A stretch of DNA of 63,482 nt, filler included, from Craspedostauros australis (Eukaryota), in NCBI GenBank assembly GCA_030167865.1. It is 15 parts of 15 records of this genome, joined end to end, with 100 filler letters (N's around TTAATTAATTAA, not from the genome) between each part and the next. Parts side by side here need not be neighbours in the genome. Positions count along the whole stretch, not along the records: positions 40,671 to 44,705 come from JALAGF010000177.1; 14 more parts are not named here. One strand, 5' to 3'. The notes under the pieces were generated by a model. The model saw only the letters and a program-made list of their open reading frames with translations, had not been told where the DNA came from and did not search any database. Position numbers and translations under genes: made by a program. Shown one piece after another: positions 36,825-61,894 of the stretch; the stretch's first letter is position 1, and every line of letters begins with the position of its first letter.

Positions 36825-39800
36825 NNNNNNNNNNNNNNNNNNNNNNNNNNNNNNNNNNNNNNNNNNNNTTAATTAATTAANNNNNNNNNNNNNNNNNNNN
36901 NNNNNNNNNNNNNNNNNNNNNNNNATATCGACCGTCAAAGACGTCATCAATTCTGTCTATGGCGAAGACAAGTCAGCCAGGTATTTGTGTCGTAGAAGCT
37001 AGCTAAATGTATCTAACCCTAATGGACAACACGAAAAATCATGTTCTAAAAATATCACGTGTTACGATGTCAAATCCGCAAAAACGTACGATTCTATCCT
37101 GAATGGGGCCATACGATCTCGCCTGCGAAGCTTGCCTCCGACAGTAGCGAAGCATCACGTTTCGCAGTTCGCAGTTCGCTGAATGCCTTGCGCTGCACTG
37201 TTGTTGGTTCGGATTCACACTTGTCCAAACTCTGGATCGCACTATACTCCAGAGAAGAGTGCGCATTTGCACTGATCTACTCTATTCGTACTCTTGCTCT
37301 GTCGCGGTATTATGCCCGTGTAACTCCTGTCGATGATCCTTCGTTCTGTGTGAAGGCGCCTCAGCACGTTGCTCGTCATCAGGCGAACGTTGCTCTCGTG
37401 ACCTCCAACAGCTTCGTAGCTTGTGCTTGCGCTCGCAGCAAGTTCAAACACCCAACAGGAAGCCAATCGCTATTCTATTCGTACTCTGCCATACAACTCA
37501 GATCTCTCCACTGTTCGTGCCCTGTGGAGCACAGTGTCCACGATCGATGTACAGCCTCCCTCAATCCCGAGGATGGATCTGGGAGCGCGAATGTCAAGCA
37601 GACATTGAGCCTCAGATCTTGATTCCAGGATTGCGCGGTCCAGCACCGAAGTTTGGTGTGGGGCGTATTTGCGACATGCTCTGATTTGTTCCCGAGGTGT
37701 ACTGGTATAGGGTAGAGAGAGCAGAGAGGATCCTCTCAGATTCATTCACGCAGCTCTAGCCAATCTCATCATTTCTGCCAATGTCTCTCCACGAGTACAG
37801 AGCAGAGAGAGAGAGAGAGGGCTCGCTCTTGTTGGAGTCTTCCGATCTCGCAGTCTCTCATGTTCAGACCAGGTATCCGTCAGCGCAACCTCCTTCCAGT
37901 CTTTTTTCGGGAGCATCTTGCGTGTGATGTTAGCGGCTGTACGGAAACTGGAGCAACTGTGTCCAAATTGTGAGAGAGCAGCGATAGGAGGGCACTATTA
38001 GTACATGTGCCTTCACTTCTACCCGAGTGAGTTTTCCGTGCATGATTGTGTCCGAAGCGTCACATAACGAACGGCATTCAACTTCATCTGCGCGTGCCCA
38101 GCCCGGTTGTTGACGTGCCAACATCGCCGAACGCCGATGACAGAGGACTAGTTGTTGATGCGTGCGCTTCTTCTGCTGTCGAACCTCAAGCGAAAGTGTG
38201 TTGGGCGTAACACTCGATTCACAACGATCAAAACTGCATGACGAGGCAACACTGGTGCGAACATCAACGACGACTCTGTGCCGACGAGTGACGAACAATC
38301 GGACACACTCAAACGACCACGATTGATGCATCCACGAATAGACACCTGTGGGGGGCAGTTCAAAATGCAATAATTGGCTCTATTTCATAGCGTTTAAGTC
38401 ATAAATCGCTTGTTTCCGCCTAGTTCTTATCCTCGACGGAATAATATGGCATTTTTGTTCTTTTTTGGATAATTGGTGCTTTCCCCCCAAAATTCGCCCG
38501 AGTTGCTTTCGCTCTTCGTCATTGCTCCATTTCCCCACTTTACACTGTGTCGGTGTTTGCTGAGCGTGTTTTCGTCTCCGGTCCGCGCAAAACAAGGCTG
38601 CTGTCTTGGGCCAGCGCAGAGCACACAAAACTCACAACCCCAACACTCTCCACAGAGATCATTGCTCCACAGAGCACTTCGTTCCTGTTACAATCACAAT
38701 CACAACCACAACCACAACAATAACAACAACAACAACAGGTACACCAACATCACCACTGCAACAGTGTTTCGTCCATGGGTGGCTCCTGTATGCGATGCAA
38801 CTGGAATTNNNNNNNNNNNNNNNNNNNNNNNNNNNNNNNNNNNNNNNNNNNNTTAATTAATTAANNNNNNNNNNNNNNNNNNNNNNNNNNNNNNNNNNNN
38901 NNNNNNNNTTCGGAATGCTAGTTTCATCATCACTAGCATCTCATAAAAACTATCATCAGCACGACAAGGACGACTCAACATTGCTGCAAATGAAGAGAAA
39001 TGATTGGNNNNNNNNNNNNNNNNNNNNNNNNNNNNNNNNNNNNNNNNNNNNNNNNNNNNNNNNNNNNNNNNTGTTTTTGGCTCCTAAAACGCAATCGAGT
39101 TTCACTTTCCGAGGGGGAAGTTCGCATGTTGCCCCTCTAAAAATGTCATTATCAGGTTATTTTGTACCGTGGGACTCGCAATGTGAAATGCGATATCCCC
39201 CTAATGTGCCACTTGTACGAGTATGAGTGTTTGTGTCAACTCTGCATCCAACTGGTTCGTTGGGAAAGGCCACGATCTATGAGCCCCTCGAGCGAGTCGA
39301 CCAACTGTTTGAAATGAAGAGTCTAGTCGTTTTTCTGGGATTTTAAAACTAATTACATATACATAATCCTCGTAGTCTATTTACATGTGGTGGACCCTTT
39401 CAGCTTCTACTTGGTTTCATTTTAAGTTTTATGGAGTGATCTATGTGTACAATGCAGTCGCGTTGATCCAACAGCAGCAAATTCGTTAGTTTCTGCCGAA
39501 GGTTCGATAATGTTCTCATGCATTTATCGTGAGGTGACCAGTCACGGACCTGCTTCCGAAGGTGCCGGTCGTTTGGTACGCGTTAATTACACGTTAGCAT
39601 GTGGTACGTGATTCCACATTCTGCTCGTCACAAAACACATGACACAAAACACATCACACAAAACACATCATCTCCATCATTTCGCAAAATCGCGCCACAC
39701 GTTCGCTCCATTTCACAACTTGGCTCGCCAATGCCATGCATACTCGCCCTTTCGCTCAATGCCCGTTCTCATCAGAGTAGTAGTAGTTGTAGTAGTAGTT

Positions 39801-39925
39801 GTTGTTGTTGTTGCTGAATGGCCCACCTATCGTTGCATGCTCTCCGTTCGTCACTTCGTCTCACACCAGTGCAGTTCGTCACATCCAACCAGCAAACCAC
39901 ACTACTCCACAGAAACAACTGCATC

Positions 39926-40570
39926 ATGCCTTTCTCTACCACCGCCAAGGCCCTCTCCAAGGATGGCAACCCCTCCCCTAGTAAGAAACCTCGCGCTCAC
40001 CCTGTGTCTGCTCCTCCTGTCGATTCGAAGGGGGGATTGCTGCCTACTGCTGAACAACTGTTGCCTGACAAGCCGTCCGCTGCGTTGAGGAAGCCGAGCA
40101 CCATCACGCAAGTGATCGATGTGAAGCCGATGCATGCAGCGGATGGCAGCCTTGTCCCGAACGGTACGCATGCGCACGCTCGCGAGCTGCATGTGTACGT
40201 TCACATCCTCCACGACAATGGAGGCGTCTTTGATGACTCCAACGTCAAGGTGCGATCGGAGGGACGAGGTGTCGGCGATGGGGCTACAGTGAGCGTTATC
40301 GTGAACGCACCCTCCCTGCCTGCTGCAGCTGATGTTGCACCCCCTGTGAAGCCTACCCCACCAGGGAGGCTTCCCCGGCGTTGCAACACTGTTGTTGCTG
40401 GGGGGTACGCAGATCCCTCTATTGACAGCGACAGCACGTTCGTTGACGATGAGGAGGAACAGACGCGCGCCGGCTGGGGCAGGAGAGGCGGCAAGCTCGG
40501 GTGTGATCTGGAGGAGGAGGAGAGCTGGAGGCGTGGTGCCATCGTTCGTGCGATGGCGGCGCTTGGGTCT
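39926..40570 (+). CDS. Repeated orphan ORF, copy 1 (truncated by linker)
   Basis: Near-identical protein segments with 60862-61894, e.g. LRKPSTITQVIDVKPM.AADGSLVPNGTHAHARELHVYVHIL. Confidence 0.55.
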
Positions 40571-40675
40571 NNNNNNNNNNNNNNNNNNNNNNNNNNNNNN
40601 NNNNNNNNNNNNNNTTAATTAATTAANNNNNNNNNNNNNNNNNNNNNNNNNNNNNNNNNNNNNNNNNNNNTGTCA

Positions 40676-41149
40676 TCATTTTGCCTTCTTTTTGTCCTTC
40701 CTCCGTTGTTGCCAATACAACGACTCGTACTTCCATCGCTTTGCTGCATGAAAATGCTTCCTAAATTGTTCCATTGGGAACTCTTGATAGCACGGTCTCC
40801 TTTGGTACAGCTGTCTGGGGGTGAGAGACTTCAATAGTTCATCTTTGAAGTCGCTTCTCATCATGTTCTGTGCTTCAGAACCATCCCATCTCAGTTTGCC
40901 AGTTGGCTTCGAAGTAATTGTCATTTTCTTGAAAGCAGCGAGTGCTTTCTCTGCATCGGCAGCATCCGCTTCATTTTGCTTCCACTTTTTCCGAAGGCGA
41001 TTCAAATTGCTGCGAAAGTTGGTGTAGCTCACATCTGCAAATTCAGCGTGGCTTTCGTAGATCTCCTTTGGTTTCATTTCTTGTGTAATGGTCCCTGCCT
41101 TCAATTCCTCCTCCAGGATCTTTTTTGCATCAGCCCATTTGAATGGCAT
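40676..41149 (-). CDS. 157-aa basic helical protein with an internal duplication; probable Harbinger accessory DNA-binding protein
   Basis: Two related modules: W-ADAKKIL...KPKEIYESHAEF...FR and W-DGSEAQNMM...TPRQLYQRRPCYQEF...FR; basic C-terminus. Same contig as the Harbinger transposase end. Confidence 0.65.
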   Translation of the reverse strand: MPFKWADAKKILEEELKAGTITQEMKPKEIYESHAEFADVSYTNFRSNLNRLRKKWKQNEADAADAEKALAAFKKMTITSKPTGKLRWDGSEAQNMMRSDFKDELLKSLTPRQLYQRRPCYQEFPMEQFRKHFHAAKRWKYESLYWQQRRKDKKKAK

Positions 41150-41154
41150 CTTTG

Positions 41155-41990
41155 TTGACGTTGATGCTGATGCTGATGCTGATGATGCCAATGTTGATGC
41201 CGCCGACGATGCCACTGATGATGCCACTGATGATGCCGCGTATGATCCAGTTGCTGCTACCAATGCTGATACCAATGCGGATACGGATGCTGATGACGCC
41301 AATGCCGATGCCGCGGCAGCTGTTTCTGATACCTTTCTGATGCCACCGACGATGCCGCTGATGATGCCGTGTATGATACCGGTGCTGATGCCGATGCTGA
41401 TGCTGCTGCGGCCGTTTCTGATACCGATGCGGATGCTGATACCGATGCGGATGCTGATACCGATGTGGATGCTGATACCAATGCGGATGCTGTTACGGAT
41501 GCTGATGTGGATGATGATACCGATGCGGATGCTGATACCGATGCGGATGCTGGTACGGCGGCGGATGCGGATGCTGATGCCGATGTTGATGCTGCTGCGG
41601 CCGTTTCTGATACCGATGCTGATACCGATGCTGATACGGATGCGGATGTCGATACGGATGCGGATGCTGATACGGATGCGGATGCTGATGTGGATGCTGA
41701 TGCCGATGTTGATGCTGCTGCGGCCGTTTTTGATACCAATGCGGATGCTGATACGGATGCGGATGCTGATACCGATGCGGATGCTGATACCGATGTGGAT
41801 GCTGTTGCGGATGCTGATGCGGATGATGATACCGATGCTGATACCAATGCTGATACGGATGCTGATACCGATGCTGATGCCGATGCGAATGCTTATGCAG
41901 ATGCGGCCGTTGGAGATGCCGCTGCTATTGCCACTGATGATGATGATGATGCTGATACCATCACTGTTGCTGATGCCTTTGCTGATGCTG
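41155..41990. repeat. Degenerate GAT-GCT/GCG/ACC hexamer low-complexity array
   Basis: Gives poly-(DA/DT) on + and poly-(SA/SV) on -, with higher-order GCTGCTGCGGCCGTTT units. Confidence 0.9.
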
Positions 41991-42564
41991 TGGCAAAGCT
42001 CCTTCAGGCGTTACCACACGCGCTGATACGAATGCTGGTATGTAGTGTTGTGGAAGTTGTTGTGGCGGATACTGTTGTCATTGCCGTGGTCTCGTTGTTA
42101 TCTGTTGATGTGCAAGTTGAGCTGTGTTCAGTTGTGTCGGATGAGACAGTCATGCCCTGCTCGCCGCCTCCCTGTCGCAAATGGGTCCTCTGTTGTCCCT
42201 GTTGCTGTTACCATCAGCATTGCCGTTGGTTTGGGTCCGCGTGGCTTGTATTCCGCAGTTGATTGATCTATTGATTGACCCATCGAGGGCTGCCGTTGCC
42301 TGCGGTGTTCTCAGAGTCTCTTGTTTGTAGTTGTTGCCGTTGCAGTGTTCGTTTGTTGTTCTAAATTGGTGGGGCTGTGGCTGTGCTCATCCTCGACTGT
42401 GGGAGATTGTGTGGAATTGCCATGAGTTTCGTCCTTGGGTGTTGTGTGTGTGTGTGTCGCGAGGCTTCGGCAATGACGCCACCTATCTCGATTGGTCGTG
42501 TGAGTTCGCCCAAAATGGAAAATGTGTGTTCGCCCTTCATCCGTCGTCACAAAACAACACAAGG

Positions 42565-43677
42565 ATGAGCAACCAAGCCACCAACACCACTGCTTCTGGT
42601 ACTCCTGGATCGCGTCTCCCTCGTGGAGCAACTCCCACCCGCTCAAATTCAAAATCGATGCGAGCGGAAGTCGACATCGCCATCTTGGACTTCCTCCTTG
42701 GTGCAAGGCGCTTCGATACATTCAAACGGCACTGTGACGAGTTTGAACATCTCCTCGGCAAGGCTGGTTCTGCACAGCGAGACGCCAGCAGACAACGAAA
42801 GTACTACCTTCAAAAGTACCTCGACAAGGCAGGGTTACAAGCATTGCGGACGACTCTGCAACAATCATTGAGTGGGAATGGTCCGAAACCGCCATGTGCA
42901 GCCACAACACCCAACACAAACTCAAAAGCTGCAGCTCTTACAACTCCATCGACATCAACATCGACATCCACGCTCTCGCCACAACGACAACGCAAAATCC
43001 TCTTCTCTGCTGAGACCAACATGGCAACCAACGACGAAACCAGCACGAACGTCACCGAGATCGAAGAAGGCGAGCACTACAACATCGACCTCGACCATCC
43101 ATTCCACCATGTGGAAAGCACCATGATCTACCAAATGGATGATGTGATCCTCGAAGGTCGATCGTTTGACTGCCTCGTCATCCGCAAGTTGTTCGTCGAC
43201 AAAGACGATATCGAGGAAATCAAGGCCTCCATCTGTGAGGGCGGCACCTGCATCAAGATAAAGGAGCCAGCAATCCCATCGTTGATGCTGGAGACGAGCA
43301 CAGACGCCATGTTCGCCCAGAAGAAGGGGGTGCCCGATGCCAACCTTGCAAGGGAGAAGCTCCTTTTCCACAAGTTGGTCAACCGCGAGACCACGAGGGG
43401 AGTCGGCTCGAAGTATACATACTTCCATTGCCCAGAAGGAATGACCCTCTCCGCCAACTTCTTTCAAAATGAGGCTGAGTGCCTCATGAAGACATACTGC
43501 CCAACACCAAAGGTGTTGGTTCACAAGGCAACAAAGGCGCAGCTCAAGATCCCAACAAACGTGGTCTGCTGGAGAGTTGCCATCGACGGATTTCATGGCA
43601 GGGTTGGTCTCAGCAGCAACGACACCGAGAATGTCGACGATGCATTCTTTGGCATGTTGACTACCACTGGTGAGTAG
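42565..43677 (+). CDS. Hypothetical protein (~370 aa), probable transposon accessory ORF
   Basis: Long open frame: an N-terminal helical domain (CDEFEHLLGKAGSAQRDASRQRKYYL), a T/S linker and a C-terminal beta-rich region ending VCWRVA. Confidence 0.6.
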   Translation: MSNQATNTTASGTPGSRLPRGATPTRSNSKSMRAEVDIAILDFLLGARRFDTFKRHCDEFEHLLGKAGSAQRDASRQRKYYLQKYLDKAGLQALRTTLQQSLSGNGPKPPCAATTPNTNSKAAALTTPSTSTSTSTLSPQRQRKILFSAETNMATNDETSTNVTEIEEGEHYNIDLDHPFHHVESTMIYQMDDVILEGRSFDCLVIRKLFVDKDDIEEIKASICEGGTCIKIKEPAIPSLMLETSTDAMFAQKKGVPDANLAREKLLFHKLVNRETTRGVGSKYTYFHCPEGMTLSANFFQNEAECLMKTYCPTPKVLVHKATKAQLKIPTNVVCWRVAIDGFHGRVGLSSNDTENVDDAFFGMLTTTGE

Positions 43678-43827
43678 CCATCACGATCACTGACTCTCTT
43701 TCAATTTACTTGCATTGAGTATGACAATGCTGAATCAACTAATACACACTACTGTAGACGACCGACTAACATTCCACACCAATTCTCTGTCTCCTACTTC
43801 GTCCAAACAACTCAATACATAGCAAAC

Positions 43828-44439
43828 ATGACCATCGGGGCCAGAAGTTCTGATACCATGGACATTGACGCCCCAACACCGTCCACAGCTCGTTCCAGCA
43901 TCACGACTGACACACCTGTTGCATACGGAGGGGAAGGTGTGACCCCTTTCATGGTCGAGAGCAACCATGGGGTTGTGCACAACCCAAGTCCTCCCCAAAG
44001 TGGCCCGGCGGTTCAAGATCCCGGATTGGACGGGATGAACTACCCGGACGTCCCGAAGTCTGCATTGGACGTTCCCCTCCCTGGTCAGGATGGATTGGAT
44101 GAGTTGAACTTTCCTGATGTCCCATCATCCGCGGTGGACCTTGTTGATTCCAACCTGCTTGTCTTGGCCACAGGCGCAACAATCCATCGCGAAGTTGTTG
44201 CTTGTGCTGGTCCTCCAGATGCTGCTGCCCTCGTGGTTCATGCAAATGACGCTGTCATGGGCGACGAAGGCCATCACCTGAAGCGCGCAACACTTGGGAC
44301 CAGCGGAAGCACCCCAAAGAAGATGAAGTCTGCAGCAGATGGCGAGCCAACGATCGCAGATGGACCTGACCTGGAGCAGTCACCAGATTCCTATGATTTC
44401 GATGACAGCGCCGATGATCCTCTCTCTGAGTACTTCTAA
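43828..44439 (+). CDS. Acidic low-complexity hypothetical protein (203 aa)
   Basis: AAACATG start context; internal duplication PGLDGMNYPDVP / GLDELNFPDVP; convergent with the transposase. Confidence 0.4.
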   Translation: MTIGARSSDTMDIDAPTPSTARSSITTDTPVAYGGEGVTPFMVESNHGVVHNPSPPQSGPAVQDPGLDGMNYPDVPKSALDVPLPGQDGLDELNFPDVPSSAVDLVDSNLLVLATGATIHREVVACAGPPDAAALVVHANDAVMGDEGHHLKRATLGTSGSTPKKMKSAADGEPTIADGPDLEQSPDSYDFDDSADDPLSEYF

Positions 44440-44501
44440 GATGGCAATATTGACAGATAAGAGTACAGGAATGACTTGCTCTAATAGTATTTAGGAATGA
44501 T

Positions 44502-44705
44502 TCATATCTCAAATATTGGATGCCCGTTGTCCAGCTCGTATTGAATCAATACACAGCAGGCTTCAAAAACACATTGATGCTTCTCAATATCATTCCGATA
44601 GTCATGCACCAGCGCCTTGAAGTTCTTTATTCTCCCATTAAAACTCTCGTGTCGAGCCCTTGCTCGATTCTTGAACTTTTTCACAGCAGCAGAATCGAGT
44701 GGATT
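44502..44705 (-). mobile_element. PIF/Harbinger-like (DDE_Tnp_4) transposase C-terminus
   Basis: NPLDSAAVKKFKNRARARHESFNGRIKNFKAL...HQCVFEACCVLIQYELDNGHPIFEI*; carries the R-x-x-x-E catalytic Glu motif. Confidence 0.8.
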
Positions 44706-45649: not shown

Positions 45650-46963
45650 TCAAGGATTTCCTTTCGGGGCCGTTTGGAAGGGATCCGTTTCAGGAGTAAC
45701 GAGTGTTCCCCAATGTTTCGGGCCCTTCTCGAATTCTTCGTCAGTGAGCAAGCACGCGCGAATAGCATCCATAACACGTTCCTTGTCTTCCAATTGTCCA
45801 ATGACTACGAGCTCTTGTCGTCGATCGCCATAGGGCTCAGTCCAAAGGGGAGTGACAGCTTCTTCAACGCCTTTGGGCCACTGCTTCGGATTGATTGCCG
45901 CCCACCATGGATCGCCAAGAGTGACCCCGAACCGATGGCCAGCTAGAGAGAGCTCTGATCGATATTGAGCACGGTTTGCCAACCAACAGAATCCCTTAAC
46001 TCGCATGACGATGGACTTGTCAAACGGTTCGTTGCCTTTCAAGATATTGAGGAACAAATATCCCAGCTTGGCAGGATGGAAAGGTTTGCTGGACTGGAAG
46101 GTCAAGCTGCTGATTCCGTACTCTTCTGTCTCGGGAGTGTGCTCGCCGATGCGTGCCTCTTCGAGCCAGCCTTTGTGTTGCTCAGCTTTCGCCATGGAAA
46201 ACAGACCGGTTCCCAAGACAGATTTCAATGGCACCTTGGAAAAAGATGATTCCACAACCTTGGCATTGGGGTTCATCACGCTGATCAAGCGACGGACGCA
46301 GTTTCGTTCACCGTCTTCGATCAAATCGCACTTGTTGAGAACGAGGACATTGGCGAATTCAACTTGATCGCACAGCAAATGCGAGATAGTACGGGCATCA
46401 TCCGGATCAGACTGCCAATCCCGCTGCTGCAGAGACTCCAGGCTGTCCAGCTAGGAGAAGAAGCGGGAGCCATCCACGACTGTGACCAGGGTATCAAGAC
46501 TGGCCACGTCGCCCAAGGTCACGCCCGTCGAGTCTTTGAAGGTGAAGGTTTCGGCGACAGGCATGGGTTCAGAGATACCGCTCGATTCGATCAGGAGGTA
46601 GTCGAAGGTGCCCTTGGCTGCGATGGCGGAGACTTCGGTCAACAAGTCTTCTCGCAGGGTACAGCAGATGCAACCGTTTGACATTTCCACCATGTGTTCT
46701 TCTCGTTGGACGATGCTCGTCTTTTTCAGCAAGGCTGCATCGATGTTGATGGTGCCCATGTCATTGACGAGGACAGCCACGGTGAAACCTTCGTAGTTGG
46801 CCAGGATGTGTGACAAGAGGGTGGTCTTGCCAGATCCCAAGAAGCCAGACAGGAGGGTGACCTTCAATTTGGGTTCTGGTTTCTCGCCATCCTTGGAGAT
46901 ACCTCGCTCTGGCTCCGCGGTTTTGGCTTCGTCTGAGTGTTTTGGTTCATTGACGTCCTTCAT
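45650..46963 (-). pseudogene. cobW: COG0523/CobW-family (ZNG1/YciC-like) metallochaperone GTPase interrupted by an in-frame TAG at 46451-46453
   Basis: [45 protein letters not shown]; CobW_C region PFHP...RVKGFCW...GDRRQELVVIG. Reads SRFFS*LDSLESL across the stop in the same frame. Confidence 0.85.
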
Positions 46964-50339: not shown

Positions 50340-53300
50340 CTAGCAAGGCGGGGCTGCCGACGAGGCGGGCCGCCCGGACTGGTGGGATTCTGACACAGCG
50401 CGCCTCAGCCATGCCACTTGCGTTGGGGGGATGGTGTCGGCCACGTGAGGCATGGCATGGAGCATCACGAGCAGCCACTCTGCCTTCTTGGGCGTCGTGC
50501 TTGGCACCTGCTGTGCGATCTGGCGAAGATGCACCGGAAGCGAGGCGAGCGGGAGCTCCCTTAGCGCCGTGGAGTACGACTCCATGCGTTGGGCCATCAG
50601 GCTGCGCGTTCCATCCTCATGCAGCTGGCGGTTCCTGGACGTCCACTGCTGAAGGATCATGAGCCACAGCTCGTGAGTCACATCAGCCTGCCAGTGGACT
50701 GGCCGTCTCCGCGCTGCTGTTGGCTCCGGATTCGGGCTGAACTGCTCCCATGCGGTGGACCACCCTCCCCAAAGAAGTCCGTCCCAACCGACACCATGCT
50801 GCGCCACCTCAATGCCATGCGTCGCCGTGCGCCGAATGCCTTGCGGCGGGTTGCCGCCTTGCTGGAGGATGCGGAGGGCTTTGACCAGCAGTTGGGCCGC
50901 CTCTCGTCGGACCCGAGGAGGCTGGATCACTTTCCGAATTCGTTGAACTGCGTCTTCCCATATGGCCTTGCTGTCATCGCTTGGGCAGCGCACCACATGC
51001 CAATTGTCTTCGACGGCCCCGCACCTGGGGCAGGCCCCGGAGGCAGACTGCCCACGCCGGCACATGTTCCTGCCGGACGCCGCGTTCCCGGACGCCAACT
51101 TGAGGATGGCCCGTTGCTGGCCGCCTCTCCATCGGGACGACGCCCTCATCATGGGCCTCCAATCGACTGCGTGGCTTGCGGCGGACCCCCAGCGCTGGCG
51201 CCACTTGTTGCGCAGGCCCTGAGTTGCCGCCGCTTGGGAGACGGCCTCGTAGCTGGCCTCTGAAACTGGCCCGCTGAGGTCTGCAACTACCCAGCCCGCT
51301 GACTGTGGCGCCCCGGAGACCGAGCCCCACGATTGGGCTTGGTCGATGGCCCGCCAATGTCTGCCGGCCTCGTGATCCGCCACGACATTGAGAACCTCCC
51401 AGTCCGACAACTGGTGGTTCGCCCGTGCGTCCGCATGCCCCTTGACGTGCTGGACCTTGAACCGCACTGCTGTCGACTGCAGCTGACGCTGGATCTCCTG
51501 CCGCAGATCGAAGTCGGCTTCGTCGGATGGGATGAGCCGTGCCCTCGCGCTGGACCGTATTGCTTGCATGTTGTCACACGCAATGGTGGCAGACCCCTTC
51601 ACGTCCGCCCACGCTGCGAAGGCCCGCAGGAACTGCATGGCCAGTAGCACTCCCGCTGTCTCGGCTCTGTTCGACGTCATTGGCTGGGAACCTTCCGGGA
51701 CCTCAGAGCAGAGCAAGATACCTGAAGTGGGTTGGACGAGGCTGTCCTGAATCACCACCGCAGCGGCGCCTCTGTTGTCTTTGGCCGACGCATCGCAGCA
51801 TGCCACGCACTGCCCGCTTGCGATGGCAGTCGAGATGGATGCTGTCGACCCGTGGATGCGCACGTGGCGGAGCATTTGGTCTGCGAGGCCTCCCATGCCG
51901 ACGATGTGCTCTCGGAGCGTGGTCGCCAGCGCAGGGCGCAGGACTTGTCCCAGCGAGAGCACCACCGTGGTGCCTCGGTGTGCATGGGCGTCTGCGACGG
52001 CCTCCCCGCGGACTCGACGACATCTGTACTCCGTGTGGAGAATTTGCTGCGGCGATTGCCTTGGCCGATGGCTCTCGAGCAGGCCGGACTGGCTCTGCCG
52101 CACGCGGAATCTGTCCGCGCTGTGCCACGGCCCCAGAGGCTTGCGCAGTGCGGCGCCCGGCCGGTCCCTGGCCAGCAAGTGCAACACCAAGGCATCCCAC
52201 GCGTGCCACGCAGCTTGTGACGGGGGCACCGTCTTCGGCCATGGGAGGTCACTGTCCGCACGTGTAGCGGGTAGATGGCGCAGCACCATGGGGTGTATCT
52301 TGCCCCCTTCGGCATCGCAGATGTCCGACAGCCACAGTGCTTGCAGATGCACCCGGACTGCGTTGGCCTTGCGGAGCTCCACTTCGTCGCTCGTGCAGTC
52401 GAGGAACCGGCTCATGATAGTGACATCGCCCACGCGAGGGGGCTGTAAGGCTGGTGACACCTGTCGCATGTGAAGCTCGGACTGGCTCATCATGTCAAAG
52501 GTATGTGACCACCACGTGTCGTGGGTCCACTTCCGCCAACGGCGATGGAGCTGCTGGATCCGATCGACGACTCCAGACCACAGTTGAAGCTGCAATAGAG
52601 ATGACCGTAGGAGCCGTCCTGTGGTGGTGTCAGCCTCAAAGTGTCGCCAAACCAGCTCCAAGTGCGCTTTGCATTGCACTGTGAACAGGTGAGGTATGCC
52701 AAGGCCATTCAGCCGCCGGGGCCCGTGCACATACGGCCTTGCAATGGACCTCACGATCCCCATGTGTGGAAGCGCCACACTGAGCGCGGGCCTCATTATG
52801 GTCTCGCACTGGCCGCGGGTGAGCGTGGTGGCAGCTAGCGAGTATGTGAGGGCCGGCCACAGGACCGCCTTGAGCGCAATCTCGGTGTCCTGCTTCGAAA
52901 TCCGGGCCGTCTGGATGTGGGCAGCCCACTCGGCAGCCTTCGCCCGAAGATATTCGGCGTGCTCCCTCTGGTTGCCGTCACGGCGCGACATCATTCCAAG
53001 GTATTTGCTGGCCTCGTCCACTGGCTTGTGTTGGAGAACCTGCCCTTGCTCGCCGTCGCCCCGCATTGTTATGTCTTGGGGCTGGGTTCGCCTGTCGTAT
53101 TGCCATCTGTAGTTGCCCCACCGGAAGCGGACAAGCTGCCAGAAGCTTTTCTCAGGTGCCAGGCAGCCTCCTGAAGCGGAGAGCATGTTCTCCCACAAGG
53201 AAACCATGTGTTGGAACTCGCGTGACTGCGATGCTGCGTCGGAACTCTCGAGCGAGTGAACGAGATTGGTGTCGTCCACATATGCGAAGCAGACCACCCG

Positions 53301-55934
53301 GTGCTCCCTTTGGCCCGTCTCGCCGTACTGGAACCCATAGCCTTTGTTCTGCATTCGCTCGATCAGCGCCGAGCTGATCATGAGCCATCCCGTGGGGGCA
53401 GCTCCCAGGCCTTGGACGAGGCCTTGGATCGGGTTGGAGAGACCTGCACCCGAATAGCTGGTATTGGATACACCTGACCCCATGCTGATGCGATGCTCCA
53501 TGCGCTGCAGTGTGCGCAGCACGCTTTCAATGGGAGCTTTGGGGACGCCTTGGCGGCGCATGGCCATGCCGAACGCGGGGTGTGAGATGCGGTCGTAACA
53601 CCCTTTGGCATCGTTGGAGCATACCGCCGTCGCTCTCCCAGAGATCCTCATAATGTCGTCCGCCATGCAGACGTTGGCGAGCACCTCCTGAGCGGTATGG
53701 TTCTGGCGGCTGCCGTATTGGTCCTCGGCAATGGTCCCAGTGAGCTCAGCGTGGCCCCTGGCAGCCCGGCCAAGCTGCCTGGTGTTCATATTGAAGTCCC
53801 CTTCCATTAGCCCTATCGTGCGGGTCTTGGTGACAGACAGATTTCCTGGCTGCTTGCGCAACTGAATGTCGGTGCACTGTTGCCACCTCCGCAGACTGTA
53901 GCCTGTGCAGTACGGAATCGACCGCATGATCGCGTCGATGGCCGCCAGCTCTGGGCGCCTTGTGTTCGCCTTCCAACAACCAAAATGAATGCCGGACGGA
54001 CCGGAAGACGTGCGCTCCTTGATCTTCCGCCACCCGTCTGTGTGGCACTCCGTGGAGATGACGGTGTCGGACGGGCGCCACGGAGTGACTCGAGGCGACT
54101 GCTGGAGAGCTATGAGAAGCTCTGACGTGCCGTGCTGGACTTGTGTCGGCACCAGCCCCATGATGATGGCGTCGGCGCCCGCGGTCGTGCCGTACTTGCC
54201 CACGAGTTGGCTCAGGCCTGGCTGGCACAGTTCGGAGGACCACGCTTGTTGGTATTTGGCGATGTTCGTCGCACAGCATGCTCCTGCTACCTCTTCGGAG
54301 TCTGTGAGAATCTCCCCGCTGCCGCCTGGCCCGTCGTGGACGACCATGCTGACCTGTGAGTCGCTGGCCGTGCCTGCCAGAGCTTGCTTGATGCGTCTGA
54401 ACGTCGCACGGGTCTCCTCCCGTTCGGCCATCTGCTTCCTGTATTTTAGGGGATCCCCGCCACCTTCTTGGATGAATCCCTCATTCGCTCGGAGGAAATC
54501 GACTCGGTGTTGCGCCGCCAGCCGTTTCTCCTTCTTGAGCTGACGCCACGTCTTGTTTCGCTCGACTGTCATGTCTGCCGTGCTCATGTCACGGGTGCGG
54601 ACGTGCTCCAGGTGCGCCTTCTTCTTCAGCCTGTCGATGGTGGATCCTTTGACCTGGTGGCCCGACCTTCGCCGCAGGGACTCGGTCCAGAACTGATGGG
54701 CTTTCTGAATGCGGTTCACCAGTGGCGAGTACGGGACGTTTCCCACTCGGATTTTGCGGCACGATCGCTCTGCTTTGAGCATAGCCTTCGTGCGATCCGC
54801 ATCAATGTCCTCGATTGCTCTCGCTTGCTCCTGGGTGAGGGGCGCCCCTGTCACCTCCCGCTCCAGCGCGTTGGCGCGCTCCAGCAACCTGCTCTGTCGA
54901 GCCGCTTCGGCGTACGAGTCGAGATACCGGCTGACCGTGGCCGGCCTTTGCAGCTGAAGCCTGCGACCGCGGAATGGTTGTGTTGGACTGCGGCCTCTGC
55001 CCATGAGCTGTTGGGTTGCGTAGTCCACCCATACCATGCGATGGTCCCACGGACCGAATGGTGTGGCCCCTGATTGAGTAGCCATCGCCTCCGGAGTGGA
55101 CCAGATGCCATCGATCTGTACGTTGCTGCGGTTCCGAATGTGGGTGGCTGCTGACTGTGGGTGCTGCGTGGAAAGTGCCTCTGTCATTCCTTCGTCAGCC
55201 AACATCGCACTCACTCGGGACTTCCTCACGTCCATATTGACATCGCCACCCAGGATGATCGTCTCACCCGCTTGACGCCATTGATGAAGCTGGCTTTGCA
55301 ACTCACTCAGGTGGAGGTCGATGGGATCCGCGTCGATGCCCACTGCAGCCGCATTGGACGCCTGTTGGTTGTACACCGTTCCTGGGGTTTTGGTTGACCG
55401 GTTTGCTACGTAGGTAGCCACCAGCCGCACCTTGATGTGGCCTTTGCCCTGTAGAAGCACGCTGACCCATCTGCCCCATTGGTGGGTGTCTTTCTCGCTT
55501 GTCAATATGCGGCCTCGGGTGCTGCCTTTGATAAGGATTGCTGTCCCACCCCACTGCCTCACCCGCATCGGGTTGGACTGATTGTGCGACGTGACGGTGC
55601 GTGACTGGGGTACGTTCTGCTGGACGATTTCGTGGAGCCGTTTGTGCCGCGGCACCTTGCTCCAGTTGATACCAACCTCGGTTAGGAGCATGACGTCGAC
55701 GTTGTACTTGCGGATTGTCTCCCAGAGGTCCTGATACTTGGGGTCGGTCTCGTCCATGGGTAGGCCGCCGAGGTTGAGCGCTGCGACCCGAATGTGACCT
55801 GGGACGATGTTTTGGGTGTCCCCACCTATGGAGGCGAATTGATCGATCACCTCTTCCGTGCCTGATCGATCGGTGTTGTCTTGCCTGTTGCTCTGCCGGC
55901 CGGACTGCGCGCGGCTTGCAGTGCTTGCTAACAT
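50340..55934 (-). CDS. ORF2: AP endonuclease, reverse transcriptase, RNase H and C-terminal Cys/His finger (1864 aa)
   Basis: APE: LNLGG, LTEVG, GGDVN, QIDGIW, DHR. RT: NDAKGCYDRI, GLVQG, FAYVDD, KYLG. RNase H: CDAS, RAE, CDN, HVKGH, ADHEA. Finger: CPRCGAVEDNWHVVRC. Confidence 0.92.
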   Translation of the reverse strand: MLASTASRAQSGRQSNRQDNTDRSGTEEVIDQFASIGGDTQNIVPGHIRVAALNLGGLPMDETDPKYQDLWETIRKYNVDVMLLTEVGINWSKVPRHKRLHEIVQQNVPQSRTVTSHNQSNPMRVRQWGGTAILIKGSTRGRILTSEKDTHQWGRWVSVLLQGKGHIKVRLVATYVANRSTKTPGTVYNQQASNAAAVGIDADPIDLHLSELQSQLHQWRQAGETIILGGDVNMDVRKSRVSAMLADEGMTEALSTQHPQSAATHIRNRSNVQIDGIWSTPEAMATQSGATPFGPWDHRMVWVDYATQQLMGRGRSPTQPFRGRRLQLQRPATVSRYLDSYAEAARQSRLLERANALEREVTGAPLTQEQARAIEDIDADRTKAMLKAERSCRKIRVGNVPYSPLVNRIQKAHQFWTESLRRRSGHQVKGSTIDRLKKKAHLEHVRTRDMSTADMTVERNKTWRQLKKEKRLAAQHRVDFLRANEGFIQEGGGDPLKYRKQMAEREETRATFRRIKQALAGTASDSQVSMVVHDGPGGSGEILTDSEEVAGACCATNIAKYQQAWSSELCQPGLSQLVGKYGTTAGADAIIMGLVPTQVQHGTSELLIALQQSPRVTPWRPSDTVISTECHTDGWRKIKERTSSGPSGIHFGCWKANTRRPELAAIDAIMRSIPYCTGYSLRRWQQCTDIQLRKQPGNLSVTKTRTIGLMEGDFNMNTRQLGRAARGHAELTGTIAEDQYGSRQNHTAQEVLANVCMADDIMRISGRATAVCSNDAKGCYDRISHPAFGMAMRRQGVPKAPIESVLRTLQRMEHRISMGSGVSNTSYSGAGLSNPIQGLVQGLGAAPTGWLMISSALIERMQNKGYGFQYGETGQREHRVVCFAYVDDTNLVHSLESSDAASQSREFQHMVSLWENMLSASGGCLAPEKSFWQLVRFRWGNYRWQYDRRTQPQDITMRGDGEQGQVLQHKPVDEASKYLGMMSRRDGNQREHAEYLRAKAAEWAAHIQTARISKQDTEIALKAVLWPALTYSLAATTLTRGQCETIMRPALSVALPHMGIVRSIARPYVHGPRRLNGLGIPHLFTVQCKAHLELVWRHFEADTTTGRLLRSSLLQLQLWSGVVDRIQQLHRRWRKWTHDTWWSHTFDMMSQSELHMRQVSPALQPPRVGDVTIMSRFLDCTSDEVELRKANAVRVHLQALWLSDICDAEGGKIHPMVLRHLPATRADSDLPWPKTVPPSQAAWHAWDALVLHLLARDRPGAALRKPLGPWHSADRFRVRQSQSGLLESHRPRQSPQQILHTEYRCRRVRGEAVADAHAHRGTTVVLSLGQVLRPALATTLREHIVGMGGLADQMLRHVRIHGSTASISTAIASGQCVACCDASAKDNRGAAAVVIQDSLVQPTSGILLCSEVPEGSQPMTSNRAETAGVLLAMQFLRAFAAWADVKGSATIACDNMQAIRSSARARLIPSDEADFDLRQEIQRQLQSTAVRFKVQHVKGHADARANHQLSDWEVLNVVADHEAGRHWRAIDQAQSWGSVSGAPQSAGWVVADLSGPVSEASYEAVSQAAATQGLRNKWRQRWGSAASHAVDWRPMMRASSRWRGGQQRAILKLASGNAASGRNMCRRGQSASGACPRCGAVEDNWHVVRCPSDDSKAIWEDAVQRIRKVIQPPRVRREAAQLLVKALRILQQGGNPPQGIRRTATHGIEVAQHGVGWDGLLWGGWSTAWEQFSPNPEPTAARRRPVHWQADVTHELWLMILQQWTSRNRQLHEDGTRSLMAQRMESYSTALRELPLASLPVHLRQIAQQVPSTTPKKAEWLLVMLHAMPHVADTIPPTQVAWLRRAVSESHQSGRPASSAAPPC

Positions 55935-58540
55935 TGCGGGAGAGCCCCGGCCCCGGGGTTGGCGTTGCTGCGCTGGGCGTCGAGCTCCTTGCGTAGCTTG
56001 TCGATCTCCGCGCGCTGAATTTCGAGCCTGGCCTGGTTGAGGGACTCCTTTCTTTGTCGTTCCTGCTCTCGCGCCGCTGCTCTAGTGGCCTCCCTGCGTT
56101 TCTCGGAGTCTGTTGTCGCGATGGACGCTGCGTCGCCTGAGCCGGGAACTCCTGTCACTGCGGAGTTCATGGTCATGTGGGATCCCACCGTAGTTCCTGA
56201 ACCAAACAGGCTTCTGTAGTCGAGCGCTGCCGGTCGGTGATTCTCCACGGAGGCAAGGTCTGGTGGTAGATTGGTGATGACCACACTCGCCGGAAACTCC
56301 TCCTCAAGGAGGTGCTCGAGGTTGCTGTGGTCTGGCGCATTGTATTCTTTAGTCGTGCTGTCATACGTGACGTTGAGATTTGCATGCCACGCATCGACGC
56401 TGAACCACTTCTCTGTCTTGGTGCCCAGCTGAATGCGCGCAACGGCTGGCAGGAGGCTCATGATGGCAGAGGCTTGGGCCATGTTCTCCTCAAACACGTG
56501 GCCAATGAGCTGGTCGTCATGTGCACGTGCCATGTCAAGGCTTTGAAAGATCGGCCGTCCTTGATCATCCCGCATGCTCATTATATGGGACCGGAGCGTG
56601 ACGTGCTCCCGGTTGTCCCCATGAACTGGGTCGTCCAGCTTGGTGACCCCCGCCGTGTCCACGTACTTGAGACTCGACAGCACTGCCTGATGTTTTTGCA
56701 CCAGGTTTGTACGGTGCCGTCGCTTCTTCTCCGTCATCTGCTCGTACCTGGCTTCCGGAAGGAACCGGAGGCGGAGCCCTGCTGGCCGGTTGTCGTCTTC
56801 GTTGAGGAGCGCACACATTCGCTCCACCGCGATGGCTGCTTGCGAACTCTCCGTTTCGACCTTGATAGCACGCCAGGGCTGCATCGTCCAATGCTTGCCG
56901 CTGTTCTTGTAGGCTTCTCTTGTGCTGTCGCACACCATGACTATGTTTTTGAGCTTCCCGCCGACTCTGGTGTTCTTGTGGCGTCTGCGGAACTCGCGGT
57001 TGAGTAGCTCCATGGTGCCCTTGACATCGTTGAAGCCTCCAGAATATAGCAGGAACCCGATCTCCTTGGTACTCTCGACCTGTAGCATGCTGATGTACAG
57101 TCCTTCCTGGTGCTTGTAGTAGTACGGATTCATCTCCGCATCTCTTTCCGCAGTGATGTTGGTGGGGTGCATGTCTGTTGTGATTCTGACGTTGGTATAT
57201 GCCAGGCCACTGTCCATCGTGGATGCTCGAATGCCTTTGAAGAACACGCGGAGATCCTGTAGTTCCACTGGGATTTGACCCACGTGCTGGATGTACCGAC
57301 GCTCGTCGAGTGTATCTTTCCACGGCAGGATGATGGCCGATGGATCAACAATTCTGACCTGCCGGAACCATGCCACAATTCTGTCACGGAGTGCTTTGGT
57401 GGTGTCAGGCTCAGTTTGGTCAGCCTTGATCTTGAACATGAACCTGGTGGTGTGCTGGAGGCTGGGCAGCCCGATCAGGATTTGGCTTGTGTCGGATTCC
57501 GAGGACTGGTCGTCCATGGCAATTGTGGAGGCCACCTGGCTGAACGTGACGCCTGCGCGTCGTGCTGCCGTCTTCCGGCTGCCGCTTGGGGCAGGGGCTG
57601 TTGGTGCGTGCGCCGCTGGTTGCGGGGGTTGTTTGGAGCCTTCATCGTTCAGTTGCATTGGCACGTCACTGGTTGGCTCCGGCTGCGTTTCTGGCTCTTC
57701 GCCCGCTAGTGCCGCGAATCTGTTGGTGCTTGTGCCCAGCACTGATGTGCTGCGATTCGGAGATTTCGAGATCTTGGACCGTTTGGCCGGGTTGGGGCCG
57801 CCTGGGGATCCTTTGGATGCATCTTGGCCTGCCATGACTGGCAGCTTTGGCACGTTGTCTGGGTCCCGTTCTTCATCCTCACTGTCAGTAAGGCTTGTGA
57901 CGGAGAGATCTGGGGCCGTTCCCACGTCGTAGTTGGTGCCCAGCACCCTACGCGCTGCCTCCCAAGCTCTGGCTGGCCTGGATCTGGAGCTGACGCCCCC
58001 ACTTGGCTTGACCTGGAAGACTTTCCGTGGATCGGTGGACGCCATCCGCATGATCGCCATGCACACTCGCTTGCGCCTTGGGTCGTCGGACGGGAGACTC
58101 ATCGGGCCGTACTGCGTGTGTCGCCCATTGAGAACTCGCCGGAAAAACAGTTCCCAATCCTTGACTGAGGGGTTTGCGGCTGTTGCCTCCGTCTCGTCTT
58201 TGCCGTACCATTTGGCTCTGGCGCTCCACATCTGTCCTGCCATGTAGTCAATAGAATGGGCACCAGAGGCTGTCGCGAACGGCTCGATGTTGTCGCCGTA
58301 TTTCCTCAGCGTCGTTTTCCACGTGCTTGTTCTGGGCTTGTACTCGGTGGTGAACTCTTCGGGAGCCAGTTCAACCATTACTCCACCGTTTGCCTCCGCT
58401 CTTTTGGCTGTGACACTGGTGCGATGAGGTGGTTCCTGAGCATGGGGGATACTGTGTGGAGGCTGCTCCGTATCGCCGTTGTTGCGGCTGGAAGGTGGCC
58501 CTTTTTCGAGGTCCGCCATGGTCGGTTCGTTGCTTGACAT
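55928..58540 (-). CDS. ORF1 of the non-LTR element (870 aa)
   Basis: Long ORF immediately upstream of ORF2 on the same strand, overlapping it by 7 nt (ATGTTAG); C-terminal coiled coil. Confidence 0.85.
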   Translation of the reverse strand: MSSNEPTMADLEKGPPSSRNNGDTEQPPHSIPHAQEPPHRTSVTAKRAEANGGVMVELAPEEFTTEYKPRTSTWKTTLRKYGDNIEPFATASGAHSIDYMAGQMWSARAKWYGKDETEATAANPSVKDWELFFRRVLNGRHTQYGPMSLPSDDPRRKRVCMAIMRMASTDPRKVFQVKPSGGVSSRSRPARAWEAARRVLGTNYDVGTAPDLSVTSLTDSEDEERDPDNVPKLPVMAGQDASKGSPGGPNPAKRSKISKSPNRSTSVLGTSTNRFAALAGEEPETQPEPTSDVPMQLNDEGSKQPPQPAAHAPTAPAPSGSRKTAARRAGVTFSQVASTIAMDDQSSESDTSQILIGLPSLQHTTRFMFKIKADQTEPDTTKALRDRIVAWFRQVRIVDPSAIILPWKDTLDERRYIQHVGQIPVELQDLRVFFKGIRASTMDSGLAYTNVRITTDMHPTNITAERDAEMNPYYYKHQEGLYISMLQVESTKEIGFLLYSGGFNDVKGTMELLNREFRRRHKNTRVGGKLKNIVMVCDSTREAYKNSGKHWTMQPWRAIKVETESSQAAIAVERMCALLNEDDNRPAGLRLRFLPEARYEQMTEKKRRHRTNLVQKHQAVLSSLKYVDTAGVTKLDDPVHGDNREHVTLRSHIMSMRDDQGRPIFQSLDMARAHDDQLIGHVFEENMAQASAIMSLLPAVARIQLGTKTEKWFSVDAWHANLNVTYDSTTKEYNAPDHSNLEHLLEEEFPASVVITNLPPDLASVENHRPAALDYRSLFGSGTTVGSHMTMNSAVTGVPGSGDAASIATTDSEKRREATRAAAREQERQRKESLNQARLEIQRAEIDKLRKELDAQRSNANPGAGALPQC

Positions 58541-59329
58541 CGTGATGACTTTCGTGTTGTTTGCTGTCTTTTTGGTACTGATTTAGATTTTATTTGTGTG
58601 CTGTTCGAGTTGTCGGAGTTCCGAAACTATCACAAGGGAGGACCATGTGCCCATCCACATACATGAGGGTTGACTGGGAAAGAGGATGGTCCCGCCAGTG
58701 CCTGTGCCACTGCCGTCTCCAAAGCTGCTGACAAGGATGCCGGTGCGGGTTGCGCGGCCGCTTCGAGCGGTGTCGNNNNNNNNNNNNNNNNNNNNNNNNN
58801 NNNNNNNNNNNNNNNNNNNTTAATTAATTAANNNNNNNNNNNNNNNNNNNNNNNNNNNNNNNNNNNNNNNNNNNNGCATGCATCACCTCTGACGATGTTG
58901 TTCTGGATCCTAAATGTTGTTGCCACGTGCTCGATGATGCACTCGGCTAGGCTAGACAGATCAGCGTACCATGACTAAAACATAATCTCGATTCCGAGGA
59001 TCACAATGACCGATCTTCTGACGTCATTGATGATGTCAGTGCCTACGTCAGGTTCGATGACTGTAGTGACTGAATCTGAATCGTGTATCAAGACTCATCC
59101 GACTATACTCTCAAATCGAGTCGAATCAGAAAATATTGAATCACATTTCAGTCATGGGAGATGGGTACCTAATTTCGATCTAGATGTTGATAGATGCCAC
59201 GGATGACACGCGGCTTGGCACCGCACAACAATGCGCCAGAACACCACTCCAACTCAGATTCAAGCGGTGGAGGTGGTGAGTCAGCTGAGGAAATGGAGAA
59301 GACCCCAGCAACAGCGAGAGAGGGAATGA

Positions 59330-60200: not shown

Positions 60201-60861
60201 GAACGTAATCGTAGATGGGTGTGAAGGATACCGCACCGAGAACGTAGAGTGATCAAGTCGTTGTTGTTGATGAGGAGAGTGTTTGTTTACTGTATTATTC
60301 GTATGGTAGTAGGAATGCTGTCGAGCTCACAAGATTGTCTTCTTGGAACTGTGAGCATGAGAGAGGCATGACATGATCTCATGCAATTGCAAGTAGAATT
60401 AACACGGAGACAACACGACAAATGTGCGTGTTACTGCGTGAAGATGAGGTGCAAAAGGCCAATGAACAAAACACCGCGATAGCCCGTGTTGTGAATTACG
60501 TCTTCTCACGATGTTGCTAGTAGTACGATCACACGATTGATCGNNNNNNNNNNNNNNNNNNNNNNNNNNNNNNNNNNNNNNNNNNNNTTAATTAATTAAN
60601 NNNNNNNNNNNNNNNNNNNNNNNNNNNNNNNNNNNNNNNNNNNTTTCCTCGCCAATTCCATGCGTGCTCGCTCTTGTGTTCAATGTTAGTGCTCGTTCTG
60701 GTAGTGTGGTGGTAGTGTAGTAGTAGTTGTTGTTGTTGTTGTTGTTGTCAACGAATGGTCGACCTGTCATCCTGTGCTCTCCTTCCTCACTTCATCTCAG
60801 ACCAGTGCAGTTCATCACATCCAACCAGCCAACAACTATACTCTACAGCAACAACTTCACC

Positions 60862-61894
60862 ATGTCTACCTCTACCGCTGCCAAGGCCCACTCCAAGGAT
60901 GCTAACCCCTCCCCCAGTAAGAAACTGCGTTCTGCTCACCGTGTGCCTGCTCCTCCTGTCGATTCGAAGGGGTTCCTGTTGCCAACCGCCGATCAACTGT
61001 TGCCTGACAAGCCGTCCGCTACGTTGAGGAAGCCGAGCACCATCACGCAAGTGATCGATGTGAAGCCGATGCTCGCAGCAGATGGCAGCCTCGTCCCGAA
61101 CGGTACGCATGCGCACGCTCGCGAGCTACATGTGTACGTTCACATCCTCGACAACAATGGAGGCGCCTACGACAACTCCAACGTCAGGGTGCGATCCGAG
61201 GGACGAGGTGTTGGCAATGGGACTTCAGTGAGCGTTGTCGTGAACGCGCCACCCCCGCCTGCTGTGGCCGACGTTGCACCACCTGTCGAGCCTGCCCCAC
61301 CAGCGAGGCTTCCCCGGCGTTGCAACACTGTTGTTGCTGGTGGCTACGCGGATCCCTCCCATGACAGTGACAGCACCTACATGGACGACAAGGAGGAACA
61401 GATGCGCGCCGGCAGGGACAGGAGGGGCGGCAAGTTCGAGGGTGATACATCAGAGGAGGGGAGCTGGAGGCGTGATGCTGTGATCCGCGTGATGAAGGAG
61501 CTCACCGATGACATCGACATGGACGTGTTTAATTCCATGCCTCCCACGGGATTCATGCTTGGCGGCCAGCGTGACAGGCAAACATGGTGGGACGTGACAC
61601 GCGTATGGGTTACTGTGGTTACTGCACTCTGGGGTGTCTTGCTCCCTTGTGAGGCATTGCCAACTCGCCAGATGCAACAGGTGGTGGCGTTTGTCCGTGC
61701 TCGCGTGGACCTTCCACCAACTACACTCGGTCCGAATCTATACACCCTCTGTGTGAGGGGGGAAAAGACACTGGCTAACGCATCCAGGGCTGTGCTTGCT
61801 GCGTCTACGTCATTCACTAACAGCTCTGCAATCCTGTCTCATCACGTGGAGACTCTTCCAGAGGAACAACGTATTCATGTCAAGCCTGCACGCG
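60862..61894 (+). CDS. Repeated orphan ORF, copy 2 (truncated by linker)
   Basis: Paralog of 39926-40570; frame stays open for more than 340 codons. Confidence 0.55.

Follow-up and report, generated by a model that had tools for sequence, protein, structure and literature searches.

Contig JALAGF010000177.1 (C177) of the diatom Craspedostauros australis represents the central part of a mobile Harbinger-group DNA transposon. It lies between linkers in the window, by which we mean the whole 63,482-nucleotide stretch of DNA analyzed, a string of small joined contigs. The element is bounded by terminal inverted repeats (TIRs) and makes a CWG target duplication; its DDE transposase looks intact, and two divergently oriented accessory genes, A and B, where one is usual, travel with one transposase clade under purifying selection. 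In B, a DNA-binding-type domain is predicted to be joined to a small-heat-shock-like fold, a combination that may help the element to assemble on its own DNA or to resist silencing. A preliminary description of this DNA had reported a Harbinger-like transposase 3' end linked to three accessory open reading frames (ORFs), here A, B, and C; all four frames lie in the one contig at the coordinates and on the strands claimed. The 157-amino acid (aa) ORF A is indeed basic (K+R 36 vs D+E 22), and the 203-aa ORF C is acidic (D+E 33 vs K+R 9). In window coordinates, the features are:

40671-44705: contig JALAGF010000177.1 (C177)
41149-40676 (-): gene A (ORF A), 157-aa basic protein with two homologous three-helix modules, predicted to be helix-turn-helix (HTH)-like
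41153-41994 (strand not assigned): low-complexity tandem-repeat tract in the divergent A/B spacer
42565-43677 (+): ORF B, 370 aa as an open frame
42565-43669 (+): probable gene B exon 1, from ORF B, with helical domain, linker, and crystallin-like domain
about 42664-42873 (+): predicted helical HTH/Myb-like domain of B
about 43072-43614 (+): predicted HSP20/alpha-crystallin-like domain of B, with a helical insertion
43670-43822 (+): putative phase-1 intron, 153 nt, with GTGAGT donor, CTAAC branch motif, and TAG acceptor, read from DNA only
43828-44439 (+): ORF C, 203 aa as an open frame
43823-44439 (+): probable gene B exon 2, from ORF C, an acidic, proline-rich, disordered tail with short conserved motifs
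44705-44502 (-): 3' end of the DDE_Tnp_4 transposase gene, C-terminal 67 aa, including the catalytic E

The host is a diatom, as had been stated, since its genome yields 92 silicon-transporter matches, many of them near full length. The same number, which reflects either a large family or a mixed assembly, is a warning that the assembly may contain both haplotypes or more than one strain.

Searches of the host genome returned at least 35 matches to A, 16 to B, 13 to C, and 120 to the transposase end, each count being a lower bound. Matches to B fall on 14 contigs; the transposase end follows just downstream in 11, and the other three contigs stop less than 0.5 kb from the match. Moreover, profiles built from own-genome stretches detect A and both domains of B in families (for example C863, C6630, C3155, and C5161) whose transposases are only about 40% identical and among which the gene order differs. 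Because the four-ORF arrangement recurs in diverged families of the same genome, it is not due to chance. The spacer between A and B varies among copies (1415, 1185, 856, and 726 bp); long Asp/Ala and Ile/Ser frames within it were rejected as genes, being by-products of the tandem repeat.

The remainder of the transposase gene and both TIRs lie beyond C177 and were read from the sister copies C601, C3456, C6334, and C2320. The left extension comes from C3456, which is 99% identical to the window copy in A and 98% in B, and the right extension from C601, which is 100% identical to C3456 across 650 bp. Both copies terminate in one 24-bp TIR beginning CAAGGCACGGG; the TIR starts with CAAGG. The accessory ORFs sit inside the TIRs. 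The preliminary description had named two results that would count against it, a position outside the TIRs and a lack of enrichment next to Harbinger transposases, and on both points the outcome favored it. Just inside the TIRs are subterminal tandem arrays of a 20-bp unit, the sequence of which varies between families; an inner TTGAAAC motif is common to unit and TIR. A pattern search for the TIR with at most one mismatch gave 18 matches, and the reversed control gave none. The target duplication is 3 bp and follows the rule CWG: 15 of the 17 readable flanks are CAG or CTG, the others CCG and TTG, and TWA is absent. Three two-ended insertions (C1687, C6334, and C5614) have matching duplications. 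The C6334 copy is a 1.45-kb deletion derivative in which left and right ends of the window family are joined, inserted in another repeat; of 40 matches, 4 paralogues were examined, and in these the empty site shows a single CTG. For C5614, a search for the empty site recovered only C5614 itself. Complete relatives (C5614 and C2320) measure 6.2 to 6.4 kb. In a sister family, four contigs are 100% identical over 4.3 to 5.1 kb, and the two ends read on each side have different flanks, which suggests recent movement, although collapsed repeats can also be duplicated during assembly. In 24 metagenome loci, a TIR search from exact seeds recovered no convincing full ends. In family C863, imperfect inverted repeats of about 900 bp occur at both ends (L035:1-874 and 4922-5899) and reach the starts of A and the transposase.

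The catalytic exon of the transposase matches DDE_Tnp_4 (PF13359) above the cut-off (E 1.7e-15), and the catalytic D, D, and E are all present in the sister copy C601. An NCBIfam search gave weak IS5 matches only, far under the cut-off. A transposase profile search found 480 relatives at E<=1e-10; the matches listed include one attributed to Nitzschia inconspicua and another to a bacterial metagenome-assembled genome (MAG). No transposase relative was confirmed in the viral contigs searched, and a search of prokaryote genomes yielded no more than three MAG contigs; with an intron-split transposase and eukaryotic neighbors, these appear to be eukaryotic DNA binned in error. These bacterial MAG records (L232, L233, and L234) hold eukaryote-type contigs bearing the transposon, with transposase, B, and A in L232, and are likely binning contamination. 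In three further loci (L032:6550-7600 [+], L030:4860-5914 [-], and L025:4029-4790 [+]), the transposase frame is open for 250 to 350 codons upstream of the conserved start region; the stretch has basic repeats and no nearby Met, and may be a long repetitive N-terminal arm.

The association of the accessory genes with DDE_Tnp_4 transposases, which the preliminary description had proposed, extends from the host genome to metagenomes. We scanned the latter by transposase patterns alone and took the best 80 of 210 loci; the patterns were derived from cassette-bearing families, so the linkage test concerns that clade. Nineteen of the loci extend 3 kb or more past the transposase. Of these, 14 contain A and 16 contain B; 12 have both genes, 18 have at least one, and only L137 has neither. 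Across all 80 loci, most of them short, we found A in 26, the helical domain of B in 19, and its sandwich domain in 23; reversed-protein controls in these loci gave no matches. Of the 16 loci in which both genes occur, 14 show a head-to-head arrangement. A tree, rooted at the midpoint only, was built from 67 transposases, 30 from the host genome and 37 from metagenomes, with 43 short or unlabelled metagenome loci omitted. It unites the elements bearing A or B in a single 49-row group (support 100/100). Among the members of the other group are elements in which an upstream gene joins one A-type module to a different beta-rich domain (8 loci). This domain matches host HSP20s weakly at the profile level (E 0.0014, probability 17%) and shows no profile similarity to the B sandwich. 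In this second clade (L114:3622-5861 [-], L121:5423-7460 [-], L119, and L124), the A-type module precedes the beta-rich domain, probably across an intron; in L114, an 18-bp inverted repeat is present at 3421 and 9439, and the target duplication is ambiguous.

Every part of the system is under purifying selection. Pairwise ratios of nonsynonymous to synonymous substitution (dN/dS), taken over pairs with unsaturated dS, are 0.02-0.08 for the transposase (7 of 10 pairs), 0.08-0.20 for A (5 of 10), 0.09-0.29 for the B sandwich (10 of 10), 0.15-0.38 for the B helical domain (6 of 10), and 0.25-0.61 for C (10 of 10), the highest of all parts.

A Pfam search of ORFs A, B, and C gave nothing above the cut-off. 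The two modules proposed for A are homologous to each other (hhalign probability 97%, E 2e-11), and structure prediction makes A a tandem pair of three-helix HTH-like modules that Pfam misses. They have no profile similarity to the helical domain of B. ORF B is two-domain, as had been described: the predicted local distance difference test score (pLDDT) exceeds 90 at about residues 31-100 and over most of 171-340, with a linker below 50. The N-terminal domain, again missed by Pfam, is predicted to fold as a three-helix HTH/Myb-type domain. The factors had been called non-canonical; this stands insofar as Pfam does not recognize them, and it needs a qualifier because A and the B N-terminal domain are predicted to fold like three-helix HTH/Myb-type domains. 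The C-terminal domain of B is predicted to be a compact HSP20/alpha-crystallin-like beta sandwich with the topology of an alpha-crystallin domain (ACD) or CS domain, a fold that the preliminary description did not foresee. B does not match the sequence profile of PF00011, the small heat-shock protein family. A single-sequence search with B found nothing, and profiles were required for matches; with these, 347 clusters match the C-terminal domain, and 38 of 52 long homologues carry it joined to a conserved HTH-like domain. ESM Atlas searches with A and with the B C-terminal domain gave no usable match, PDB sequence-profile searches nothing significant, and Foldseek (A and B against PDB, B against viral structures) nothing at E<=0.001. 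In complex prediction with the transposase, A, and the B C-terminal domain of family C863, a control scored equally high.

B and C are probably two exons of one 573-aa protein, so that the accessory genes number probably two; the three that had been proposed are not supported as stated. The end of ORF B coincides with a splice donor (G|GTGAGT at 43670). Directly 5' of the ATG of C is an in-frame acceptor, accompanied by the branch motif, and excision of the putative intron yields a single frame. A phase-1 donor stands at the end of ORF B in 10 of 10 own-genome copies tested, from about six families, and the junction peptides are alike. Among metagenome B ends, a listed donor motif occurs near the stop in 10 of 21, all 10 in phase 1, against a background of 1 in 55 window ORFs, B itself being counted among the 55. 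In 18 of 18 loci tested, a downstream exon of 71-1715 aa is within reach of a phase-1 splice, a permissive test that indicates compatibility only. The alternative, three separate accessory genes or a C that is a non-functional open frame, is unlikely: C has its own ATG in the window family and in C584, and its dN/dS is the highest, but the C frames of distant families have no conserved start, and the conserved phase-1 donor and similar junction peptides count against it. The predicted B-C protein would comprise a helical domain, the crystallin-like sandwich, and an acidic disordered tail.

The element shows the features by which the PHIS/Harbinger superfamily is recognized: DDE_Tnp_4 with D, D, and E, TIRs with a short duplication, and partner genes inside the TIRs. 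Like canonical PIF/Harbinger elements (Harbinger3_DR, Ping/Pong), it combines this transposase with short TIRs, a 3-bp duplication, subterminal repeats, and a separate HTH-type partner gene; unlike them, it has a CWG rather than a TWA target, a TIR starting with C, two partner genes, and a predicted crystallin-like domain, and Pfam gives no Myb/SANT match for its partners, although A and the N-terminal domain of B are predicted to have HTH/Myb-type folds. NuwaI (Han et al. 2015, PMC4482050) shares the CWG duplication, and our TIR length is within its range; however, NuwaI TIRs usually start with GGG, the elements have two ORFs including a Myb/SANT partner, and they were reported from animals only. 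The diatom element, with its own TIR start and three genes, is set apart from NuwaI by description, not by tree position. Harbinger-group elements with extra genes are already known: excerpts of PMC12730594 describe HarbingerS of Phytophthora, whose extra gene is SET, and PHISTA of rust fungi, which makes TA duplications and carries TET/JBP and a third protein without Myb/SANT. SET and TET are both absent from the window family; a search of its three accessory ORFs gave no SET match, and C2320, a complete relative, contains no additional gene. Harbinger1-4_TP of Thalassiosira pseudonana (Repbase) are also diatom Harbinger-group elements, compared here by description and not by ORF content; Harbinger4_TP, in the same excerpts, is about 3.8 kb with GGG termini, unlike the window family. 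The available part of PMC2806351 mentions diatom Harbinger-like elements without describing their anatomy, and that of PMC13668399 yielded no third-ORF case. Searches of titles and abstracts found no transposon-encoded crystallin-like domain, no crystallin-like and HTH-like fusion on a transposon, and no such gene set, Repbase entries and Reports, which may describe these families, being outside the search.

A survey of cargo beside related transposases (50 of 134 candidate ORFs plus controls, picked by eye) identified:

L138:1190-1660 (-) and 2876-3469 (+): SET (E 6e-7) and weak HhH-GPD glycosylase
L198:3092-3616 (+): HhH-GPD glycosylase (E 2e-11)
L161:2469-3110 (-): MYND
L143:1504-2061 (+): helicase-associated ORF

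Among related metagenome loci, SET was seen in L138 only. A J-domain with intact HPD motif lies downstream of B in L186 and L179, two close relatives. There, long ORFs that immediately follow B and share its strand (L186:884-4237 [-] and L179:2518-7704 [-]) have fasciclin and J-domain matches and are compatible with the B tail exon.

The element with its ends and target rule, the linkage, and the selection are observed, the splice and the folds are predictions, and what the parts do is inferred. The account we hold to be moderately probable is that of a cut-and-paste PHIS/Harbinger-type transposon in which two proteins divide between them the role that one Myb/SANT partner plays in canonical Harbingers. 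A, through its two modules, and B, through its helical domain, would bind the 20-bp subterminal repeats, A being a predicted binder of these arrays. The analogy is with zebrafish Harbinger3_DR, in which a Myb-like partner binds both the transposase and a subterminal motif (PMC9710019). The crystallin-like domain would multimerize the DNA-bound A and B or dock them on the transposase, giving a transpososome at both ends, and the variable B-C tail may be an interaction surface for host factors. It is quite unlikely that the C-terminal domain is instead a CS/p23-like co-chaperone that folds or stabilizes the transposase through host Hsp90/Hsp70, with DNA binding minor, since its recurrent fusion to a conserved HTH-like domain suggests a function on DNA. 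That the ORFs are captured host genes or a chance neighborhood is scarcely credible: nothing beyond the sporadic cargo in other loci speaks for it, and it is largely refuted by linkage across transposases only about 40-55% identical, by purifying selection, and by the conserved divergent layout.

A possible, though not likely, alternative to the split-partner model is that A is the transposase partner and B-C is a chromatin factor that sits on the element's repeats in crystallin-driven assemblies and recruits or blocks the host silencing machinery, perhaps in the manner of Arabidopsis IDM2/IDM3, ACD15/ACD21, or VANC proteins. In Arabidopsis, a single complex contains both the Harbinger-derived HDP1/HDP2 and the alpha-crystallin proteins IDM2/IDM3, which co-purify (PMC5339849). 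Multimerization on chromatin, at methylated DNA, is driven there by ACD15/21 together with a J-domain partner (PMC10651127); chromatin-type cargo (SET, HhH-GPD, MYND, J-domain) beside related transposases also fits. However, that cargo is sporadic and may lie outside the TIRs, L179 and L186 count as one case, and the window family has no such enzyme. The IDM complex and MBD5/6-ACD15/ACD21-SLN do resemble our element in bringing Harbinger proteins or DNA readers together with alpha-crystallin proteins on chromatin, but they consist of separate host proteins, whereas the diatom fold is predicted to be fused to an HTH-like domain and is encoded by a mobile element; the likeness is offered as an analogy only. 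We are more doubtful still of a wider reading in which a widespread diatom lineage encodes a DNA-targeted alpha-crystallin scaffold whose assemblies on subterminal repeats counter silencing, with the last exon a swappable cargo slot that sometimes holds a J-domain. If true, the ACD/J-domain and Harbinger/ACD chromatin complexes of plants would have a selfish equivalent in this scaffold.

These families define a large diatom DNA transposon lineage with its own target rule and gene set, which, through the clusters matching the B C-terminal domain, accounts for several hundred orphan "hypothetical proteins." Because Harbinger-derived and alpha-crystallin proteins meet in plant chromatin complexes, the elements offer a compact, testable system for a crystallin fold on DNA, and the young, intact-looking copies could be a native tagging tool in diatoms.

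A 130-aa ORF, "D," is conserved in one transposase subclade and adjoins the transposase 5' end (L037:1929-2312 [+], L061:1412-1804 [-], L063:780-1166 [-], L175:332-718 [-], and L198:615-1004 [-]). It has no Pfam match; judged by eye, its N-terminal part resembles a KOW/SH3 domain. Elsewhere in the window, two 83%-identical copies of a low-complexity ORF region lie on separate small contigs (39724-40539 and 60648-61478), probably another repeat; Pfam gave no match for the copy at 39724-40539. A CobW-family gene (PF02492 and PF07683) at 45650-46963 (-) is interrupted by a single in-frame TAG at about 46451, and a non-LTR retrotransposon occupies 50343-58582 (-), with an endonuclease and reverse transcriptase ORF of about 1860 aa and an 870-aa ORF upstream.
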